Of a stretch of 64,000 nucleotides of DNA, positions 6,592 to 7,723 are shown piece by piece. Both the position numbers and the translations under genes were made by a program. The notes below the pieces were generated by a model. It searched no databases. It saw only the letters and a program-made list of their open reading frames with translations, and was not told where the DNA came from. Source of the stretch: a virus (lineage: Duplodnaviria > Caudoviricetes); the IMG/VR virus record IMGVR_UViG_3300011008_000041, positions 8,097 to 72,096 of that record; one strand, 5' to 3'. Numbering within the stretch: the stretch's first letter is position 1; the number at the start of each line of letters is the position of its first letter.

Positions 6592-7723
6592 CTAGCCGTG
6601 CCTCGGCGACCCAAACCACGCCTGCCCATCCGCTCCGGACCGCACCACAACGCATCATTCCAAACCACGCCTGCCAAACCGAACCCTTCCGATCCCATCC
6701 GCACCGGACCTAACCTTGCCTGCCATACCACGTCCACCCTCGGCTCTACCGACCTCGCCATCCATGCCTGCCAGCCTTGCCATTCCGTACCGCGCCGAAC
6801 CTTGCGTCAACGCGCCATGCCGAGCCGCGCCTGCCATAACGTTCCCTTCCGGGCCCAACTCTGCCTTGACAAGCCATGCCAGCCAGTCCACACCTGAGCA
6901 TGCCGTTTCCCACCGGAACTGACCTCGCCTTGCCCGCCATGCCTCACAGATCCAAAGCGAACACTACCGAAGCCAACCATGCCCGCCGCGCGTAGCCACC
7001 TCGTACCGTAACTAGCCTCAGCAAACCGGGCCTGCCATGCCCAGCCATGTCCCGCCTTGACGTTCCGAACCTGAACGGACCATGACTGCCAAACCGCCCG
7101 TGCCGTACCGGGCGCAGCCTACCCGGACCATGCCAGCCGTACCGTACCAAAGCCCACCACAACAAGCCGTGCCATGTCACACCGGAACTGCCTTGCCTGG
7201 ACGTGCCTGACCTCGCGTCGACTTTCCACGCCTAGCCTAGCCTGGCAAACCGTACCGAAGCTCATCCAACCGGAACCAACCGAGCCCCGCCTAAACCCGC
7301 CTGTCATATATGTACCGAGCCCAGCCCCGCAAAGCCGTTCCACAACTGGCCCTTCCTTGCCTGCCGCACCGAGCCTTTCCAGACCGTGCCTAGCCCCAGC
7401 GAAGCATGCCCCGCCTGCCGCACCGAGCCGAACCTTGCCAAACCCCGCAAGACCCAGCCTAAACAGAGCGAACCGTGCCTTGCCTGCCTTGCCGGACCTA
7501 GCCGGGACAAACCGGGACTTGACACACCTAGCCTGCCGGGCCATTCCACGCTCTGCCACGACGCACCGCTCAGGACCACGCCATTACGTGACTTGCCTTG
7601 CCTGCCAGTCCATGCCATAACGAGACGCGCCAAGCCCCGCCATCCTTACCCTGACCGCCGTACCGAACCAATCCAGAACGGGCCCAGCCAAACCGGAACA
7701 TGACTTACCCAGCCGTGCCTGTC
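6592..7723 (-). ncRNA. GGY-NN pentamer-periodic guide array (about 20 units; VIPR-like guide RNA array)
   Basis: Plus strand reads RCC-NN repeated, e.g. gcc aa acc ga acc ct tcc ga tcc ca tcc gc acc gg acc ta acc tt gcc. 21 delimiters of type gcc-n-gcc; 15 of 20 spacings equal 4+5n nt. Confidence 0.85.

Follow-up and report, generated by a model that had tools for sequence, protein, structure and literature searches.

A guide unit in a staggered VIPR array of a Clostridia phage, very probably directed at the DUF2815/Enc34-type SSB gene of competing phages

Introduction

In a complete 72-kb virus record with terminal repeats, two minus-strand genes flank 1.14 kb of non-coding sequence, the plus strand of which is rich in C. 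What does this tract (6585-7721) encode, and what is read by one of its units, at 7136-7189? The window analyzed here is a stretch of 64,000 nucleotides of that record (IMG/VR IMGVR_UViG_3300011008_000041, positions 8,097 to 72,096), and coordinates refer to it unless another locus is named.

VIPR (Viral Interference Programmable Repeat) is a CRISPR-related DNA silencer that was first described in 2026 (bioRxiv 10.64898/2026.04.26.720920, 10.64898/2026.04.26.720927, 2026.10.15.759431). A system comprises Vipr, which is a minimal RAMP protein, together with an accessory gene, vap, and with vrRNAs of 9-16 YNNGG repeats, the NN dinucleotides of which pair with dsDNA, with one target base, usually the wobble position, being skipped; competing phages and satellites are thereby silenced in a CRISPRi-like manner (2026 preprints). 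Cryo-EM has revealed one Vipr protomer per repeat, with the GGY sequestered by the thumb and the G-loop (R138, C173, D177, W178, and R179) (10.64898/2026.04.26.720927). Seven VIPR types are distinguished, and in so-called 'staggered arrays' adjacent vrRNAs overlap by one nucleotide (10.64898/2026.04.26.720920, fig. S18). The published criterion for a natural target is an 80% NN match, and internal degeneracy is frequent in functional vrRNAs (VIPR preprint).

The array of the window, together with the adjacent vipr gene, is such a published VIPR system, a kind already described. It takes the 'staggered array' form, because the one-base register shift found here fits the published one-nucleotide overlap. 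Within this array, the unit at 7136-7189 is very probably a vrRNA aimed at the DUF2815/Enc34-type SSB of competing Clostridia phages. The features on which this reading rests are collected in Table 1.

Table 1. Features of the VIPR locus in the window
Feature	Position	Strand	Evidence or remark
vap-like accessory gene, 149 aa, phrog_15946, no Pfam	6094..6543	(-)	conserved directly downstream of the array
Staggered vrRNA array, ~20 units of 8-23 pentamers	6585..7721	(-)	HMM parse, pentamer statistics
polA unit, spells family-A DNA polymerase motif A, [F/L]IVADFSAIEA	6771..6832	(-)	exact matches, >111 viral contigs among the matches listed
vrRNA unit directed at the DUF2815 SSB (probable)	7136..7189	(-)	phase HMM parse and sequence read
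SNF2 unit, spells GITLTAAGT[I/M]VFF	7535..7603	(-)	12/13 in Helicase_C domain (PF00271)
vipr-proximal vrRNA unit, spells VEKSGQNGMFHV, the C-terminus of rival vipr genes	7657..7721	(-)	
vipr, 222 aa, RAMP/Cas7-like, phrog_4652, no Pfam	7730..8398	(-)	

Anatomy of the array and of the guide unit

A five-state phase HMM resolves the tract into pentamers of the form R-C-C-N-N on the plus strand. Among the 214 array pentamers, C occupies the third position in 93% and the second in 76%, and the first is a purine in 84%; the remaining two, positions 4-5, are close to random, with an entropy of ~1.95 bits. Each unit is closed by a 4-mer, mostly gccT on the plus strand (AGGC in the RNA), and the register thereby moves by -1. 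The units abut directly with only this 4-mer between them, and the array has neither a spacer-repeat structure nor a 3′ tail. Its G-rich strand is the vipr strand. TRF found no direct-repeat array in the tract and yielded fragments only, because the units are not exact repeats, and an Rfam gathering scan returned no match within the array.

The unit at 7136-7189 comprises 54 bases, with 10 NN dinucleotides set between 11 GGY-type triplets. On the plus strand it reads gccGT accGT accAA agcCC accAC aacAA gccGT gccAT gtcAC accGG aacT; on the minus strand, on which the flanking genes also lie, it is A-GUU followed by ten NN-GGY. On the RNA strand, seven of the triplets conform to canonical GGY and the other four depart from it (GUU, GAC, GUU, and GCU), a degeneracy that could weaken Vipr binding. 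Read on the plus strand, the NN string spells xVNPTKVITG, corresponding to the 5′ end of DUF2815/PF10991 SSB genes. A sequence-only reading of this DNA had arrived at the dinucleotides GT GT AA CC AC AA GT AT AC GG, in exact agreement with the HMM phase parse, and had correctly rendered them as V-V-[N/K]-P-T-[K/N]-V-[I/M]-T-G. The start that it gave, 7136, stands, and the end, 7188, has to be moved by one base to 7189.

The Vipr protein and its genomic neighborhood

The vipr product is predicted to adopt a minimal RAMP fold (AlphaFold model built with 19 homologues; pLDDT 81.4, pTM 0.74). The best Foldseek hits of this model are Csm3/Cas7 chains (E 9.5e-6, prob 1.0), and the top matches comprise Csm3, type VII Cas7, and Cas7-11 at E values from 1e-5 to 1e-3. 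VIA-align superposes it on Csm3 with a Z score of 9.0 and an rmsd of 3.2-4.4 over 135-146 residues, and nearly all of its top 25 matches are CRISPR RAMPs. The C-terminal half also aligns in BLASTP with the Vipr of Escherichia phage ESCO56, a protein of the SUSP1 type in which residues 173-179 are CGVGDWR (31% identity over 81 aa, E 2e-10); H17 and K33 fall outside this alignment. The protein has a G-loop, C203-G-I-G-E207-W208-R209, and a thumb motif, R165-Y-R167, in which R167, C203, E207, W208, and R209 align on the published RNA-contact residues R138, C173, D177, W178, and R179, the change from D to E being conservative. These five residues are invariant or at least 90% conserved across the 19 homologues. 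The family is large, with 7153 clusters at E ≤0.001, and relatives occur in Clostridia MAGs (Lachnospiraceae, Acutalibacteraceae, Oscillibacter, and Eubacteriales).

The 149-aa accessory protein, which like Vipr falls in a PHROG without an annotated function, was modeled with a pLDDT of 92.5, and Foldseek found no match to the model at E 0.001 or better. VIA-align gives Z scores of 5.2-5.8 to forkhead/winged-helix domains (residues ~7-104) and to generic helical hairpins, too weak to name a fold. Through the 222-aa protein, 23 related viral loci were recovered, 20 of which have the order vipr, array, and 149-aa gene homologue, with the G-periodic array directly after vipr. The NN strings differ widely across these loci, and some units are common to several of them, much like a spacer repertoire. 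Two loci (L133:72-1174 and L134) hold distant vipr homologues (34% identity) with a vap-like gene adjacent and no pentamer array between the two; their guides may be elsewhere or absent.

In a simple scan of the minus strand around vipr, no sigma-70-like promoter was detected. On the plus strand, a strong sigma-70-like match (TTGCAA-17-TATAAT with an upstream TG) overlaps the vipr start at 8399-8427, and a terminator with a 15-bp stem lies 30 nt after it at 8456-8489. The segment 8399-8489 (+) could correspond to a short divergent or antisense transcript, or to a bidirectional terminator of the upstream minus-strand gene.

The target of the unit at 7136-7189

The polA unit offers an entry to the targeted genomes. 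Read as a regular expression with 22 fixed bases over 11 codons and scanned against IMG/VR, it has by far the broadest target of the array, with exact motif A matches in more than 111 contigs among the matches listed. A set of 111 loci selected in this way (1.04 Mb) was scanned with all 20 units, and the unit at 7136-7189 is the only other one enriched, with 43 sites at ≥7/10, 25 at ≥8/10, and 3 at 9/10. Only 35 of 2000 order-shuffles gave any site at ≥8/10 in these loci. The DUF2815 codon reading of the unit is beyond chance, because a 9/10 site was reached by none of the 2000 shuffles. The skip rule is directly supported as well: a 1-nt target skip alone gives the signal, and skips of 0, 2, or 3 bases, as well as reversed readings, show no enrichment.

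All 43 sites at ≥7/10 are in frame, fall at residues ~4-20 of ORFs of 180-190 aa, and lie on the same strand as the polA motif A, which is found 1.7-2.3 kb downstream. Four of the target ORFs were assigned to PF10991, Enc34_ssDNA-bd (formerly DUF2815), with E values of 7e-75 to 9e-82 and 251-274 bits (cut-off 26), and the guide site in them covers profile position 1 and the residues immediately preceding it. The ORFs downstream of the SSB targets are PF00476, DNA_pol_A.

A second IMG/VR scan was carried out with the last nine codons of the unit and without polA selection. It recovered 46 contigs with an exact 9/10 match, 45 of which have it at codons ~4-13 of PF10991 (DUF2815/Enc34 SSB) genes, where the N-terminus follows the pattern M-x-K-[F/I/Y/L/M]-VNPTKVITG. 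These hits comprise 31 wobble variants in 26 clusters formed at >90% identity, and the median identity between pairs of hits is 69%. A shuffled nine-codon control also produced exact hits, nine in number, all from a single lineage, with two wobble variants and one cluster. Hit counts alone therefore prove little, and the argument is carried by diversity, frame, position, and co-occurrence. Given that the real hits span diverged DNA in many clusters, the match is to a motif conserved at the protein level, which is what a wobble-skipping reader would exploit.

The two sites also occur together, whichever of them is taken as the starting point. Among polA loci with enough upstream sequence, an SSB site is present at ≥7/10 in 41 of 78 and at ≥8/10 in 24 of 78. 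Of 35 SSB-hit loci that extend far enough downstream, 16 contain a match to the polA unit at ≥10/12, and most of the remainder show it at 8-9/12 at the expected distance; over the loci, the polA unit scores 8-11 of 12 at 1.7-2.5 kb downstream of the SSB site.

The full unit is less simply matched. The exact 10-codon expression GT.GT.AA.CC.AC.AA.GT.AT.AC.GG, which the sequence-only reading had offered as a detector, has no hit in IMG/VR. No natural target at 10/10 was found; the best reach 9/10 (19/20 bases) and stop there because the first target codon encodes F, I, Y, L, or M and not V, so that the first dinucleotide, GT, is absent from the natural targets recovered. The other proposals of that reading fared better. 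The SSB N-terminus as target is borne out by independent hits (45 of 46) as well as by every site in the polA loci, and DUF2815 hits do occur in the genomes hit by the polA guide. Joint targeting of one module with the polA guide is upheld by the shared strand, the short distance, and the co-occurrence in both directions. The Firmicutes context was right too, given the Clostridia relatives of the Cas7-like gene.

A genuine vrRNA could nevertheless resemble DUF2815 by coincidence, its real target being unsampled or a 10/10 target existing in phages absent from IMG/VR. The empty result of the exact pattern would suit such a view, as would the shuffled control, since its nine hits in one protein lineage demonstrate that chance matches to conserved proteins occur. 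We consider it improbable, however: chance would have to bring 45 of 46 hits, from 26 clusters and with 31 wobble variants, to a single site in a single family, attain in the polA-selected loci a 9/10 score that no shuffle attained, and do so beside a polA target that is independently supported, and 9/10 lies above the published 80% criterion.

Self-matches, sister phages, and the remaining guides

The carrier does not offer the target itself. Neither a DUF2815 nor a polA gene or homologue was found in its 72-kb genome, in which the best self-match of the unit at 7136-7189 covers 5 of 10 dinucleotides, and by the 80% NN criterion the unit has no self-target. A scan of the own genome with all 20 units gave nothing above shuffle level, except for the vipr-proximal unit on the C-terminus of its own vipr.

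Two sister phages, L200 and L201, encode Vipr proteins that are 98% identical to that of the window. The 54-mer guide is 100% identical in L201. In L200, its homologue (L200:3698-3768, corresponding to window 7129-7200) begins with the dinucleotide AT instead of GT, which would give 10/10 with IVNPTKVITG targets; it also lacks one nucleotide mid-unit, which disrupts the pentamer phase and may leave the guide split or inactivated.

Such turnover raises the prospect that the unit in the window is itself decaying or inactive, a descendant of a DUF2815-directed vrRNA disabled by degenerate triplets and a mismatched first dinucleotide. The broken phase of the L200 homologue indicates that the guide is subject to turnover, and 4 of the 11 triplets in the window unit deviate from GGY. 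Internal degeneracy of this sort is frequent in functional vrRNAs, however, and both the perfect conservation in L201 and the 19 of 20 guide bases that still match common targets argue against loss of function, so that decay appears slightly less probable even than coincidence. An active vrRNA directed at the SSB gene is the reading retained here.

The vipr-proximal unit matches ~9 of 12-13 dinucleotides at the C-terminus of its own vipr (7736-7771), in which TCC and TCA Ser codons stand where the guide reads AG and AA. Against the vipr ends of relatives it scores 10-11/12 (11/12 for L128, 10/12 for the L200 type). The proximal guide of L200 in turn spells VEKSGQSGMFHI and scores 11/12 against the window vipr end, compared with 8/12 against that of L200 (L200:3169-3260, L200:3125-3169). 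These scores suggest reciprocal targeting, with each sister phage directing a guide at the vipr 3′ end of the other. Guides that target vipr with reduced self-match have been reported in SUSP1 relatives and are echoed by those of the window and L200.

The SNF2 unit matches 12 of 13 at motif GLGITLTAAGTMVFY of an SNF2-family helicase (PF00176 + PF00271; L188:885-2219) in a 71.2-kb provirus. In this provirus, no DUF2815 guide site was found within 3 mismatches, and a third guide on the same module is thus not confirmed for it. For the other 17 units, the 157 polA/DUF2815 loci contain no target at ~72% or better. The units at 6673-6721 and 6936-6984 have five consecutive dinucleotides in common (AA GA CT GA CA, equivalent to KELEQ) and 7/9 as the best matches found for them; they are probably directed at a single target, in forms that overlap or vary.

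That the tract is no guide array at all but an RNA or DNA that binds protein periodically and in which the NN positions are irrelevant (a TRAP-like wrapping site, a G-quadruplex tract, or replication-origin iterons) is very improbable: its 3+2 nt periodicity does recall TRAP binding sites and its G-rich strand has a G2N3 pattern, but at least four units spell conserved motifs at a skip of one (polA exactly in >111 contigs, DUF2815, SNF2 at 12/13, and vipr at 11/12) and the neighboring gene encodes a RAMP in which the Vipr G-loop is present. TRAP-like wrapping RNA and G-quadruplexes were accordingly dropped, since the NN strings spell protein motifs.

Relation to known systems

The locus has the hallmarks of VIPR: it is phage-borne, with vipr and one vap-like gene beside the RNA region, and the unit at 7136-7189 contains 10 NN (9-16 repeats in published vrRNAs), conserved GGY, and hypervariable NN on the vipr strand, skips one nucleotide at the wobble position, and has natural targets above the 80% NN match. 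With published staggered-array VIPR it has in common the phage location, the vipr RAMP, vap, and YNNGG/GGY-NN repeats, the register shift, the wobble skip, and targets in competing phages. It differs in that the vap of this clade (phrog_15946) has no assignable domain and in that the array is large, with ~20 guides. Its targets are replication genes (polA motif A, SSB, and SNF2 helicase), whereas those published as natural targets are regulators or recombinases.

Type II VIPR, which has been characterized experimentally in Escherichia phage SUSP1 and a Pseudomonas fulva prophage, shares with the present system a homologous C-terminal half, the thumb Arg, the G-loop C..[D/E]-W-R, and the guide grammar; D177 of the SUSP1 Vipr is Glu in the present protein. 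The vrRNAs of SUSP1 are separate transcripts of ~100 nt with a conserved ~40-nt 3′ pseudoknot tail, also visible in an E. coli phage (locus L187), whereas the guides here are contiguous and tail-less. A type II assignment is ruled out, as the array lacks 3′ tails.

The backbone of Class 1 CRISPR-Cas systems (Cas7/Csm3/Cmr4) has the same RAMP fold, one protomer per RNA repeat, and periodic base flipping. In contrast to these systems, the locus has no CRISPR repeats and no cas1/2 or other cas genes, and its guides are hard-wired rather than acquired. The guide period differs as well: it is 5 nt in VIPR, with three bases sequestered and a 2+1 gapped pairing, and 6 nt in Class 1 CRISPR, with five bases paired. 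Membership in CRISPR-Cas was rejected on the lack of a repeat-spacer array in TRF and of Pfam cas domains in the flanking ORFs.

Proposed mechanism and implications

By analogy with the systems described in the preprints, the array and vipr would be cotranscribed, on the minus strand. Each Vipr protomer would bind one pentamer, bury the GGY triplet, and present the NN pair, and the resulting RNP filament would assemble on the array RNA, with processing at the junctions. The ten NN pairs of the unit at 7136-7189 could then base-pair with the dsDNA target, every third target base (wobble) being skipped, such that the 3′ end of the guide pairs with the start of the SSB gene at codons ~4-13 (xVNPTKVITG). 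Bound near the 5′ end of the SSB gene, the filament would be expected to block expression early in the gene in a CRISPRi style, and this transcriptional silencing would cripple the replication of the rival, a putative competitor of the carrier in one host. The sister guide would act on polA motif A ~2 kb downstream in the same module. The carrier, having neither gene, would presumably be spared.

The central claim of the VIPR preprints is thereby independently reproduced on an uncultured gut Clostridia phage. Guides that read codon positions 1-2 and ignore the wobble leave rivals no escape by synonymous mutation, and here a single phage has guides on polA motif A and on the SSB N-terminus, the two sites at which a replication module is most conserved. 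This module is spread over many phage lineages (>111 IMG/VR contigs for polA and 46 for SSB), which suggests that VIPR can be effective against a broad range of unrelated competitors. Concrete guide-target pairs are supplied for a Gram-positive, tail-less array type, known here from sequence alone. What is added beyond the known kind is modest: the targets lie in a replication module, and a Gram-positive phage has an array of 20 guides without tails.

It is conceivable, although we regard the idea as tentative and rather doubtful, that this clade of Clostridia phages represents a functionally distinct VIPR variant, defined by a tail-less array of ~20 guides, an accessory protein of no recognizable family, and guides on invariant motifs of replication modules (PolA motif A, DUF2815 SSB N-terminus, and SNF2 motif V). 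If so, it would exclude unrelated phages broadly and across families by replisome silencing, whereas the silencing of regulators or satellites known from published systems is specific to a lineage.

The carrier phage

The carrier is a temperate phage of Clostridia with a Gram-positive host. Megablast of its structural region against GenBank phages gave no match. Among the public runs listed as containing the locus, none is an RNA run, and each DNA run holds a small share of it. The window contains an ORF for a large serine recombinase at 11704-13299 (+) and one for an endolysin with CHAP, GH25, and PG_binding_1 domains at 18151-19659 (-). A reverse transcriptase ORF (PF00078) is located at 20894-22405 (-), with an Rfam RT-18 RNA match inside it at 21974-22051 (-), and adjoins an ORF of 2141 aa with a weak CotH hit at 22466-28891 (-). 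The reverse transcriptase ORF and its neighbor may constitute a diversity-generating retroelement or another RT element.
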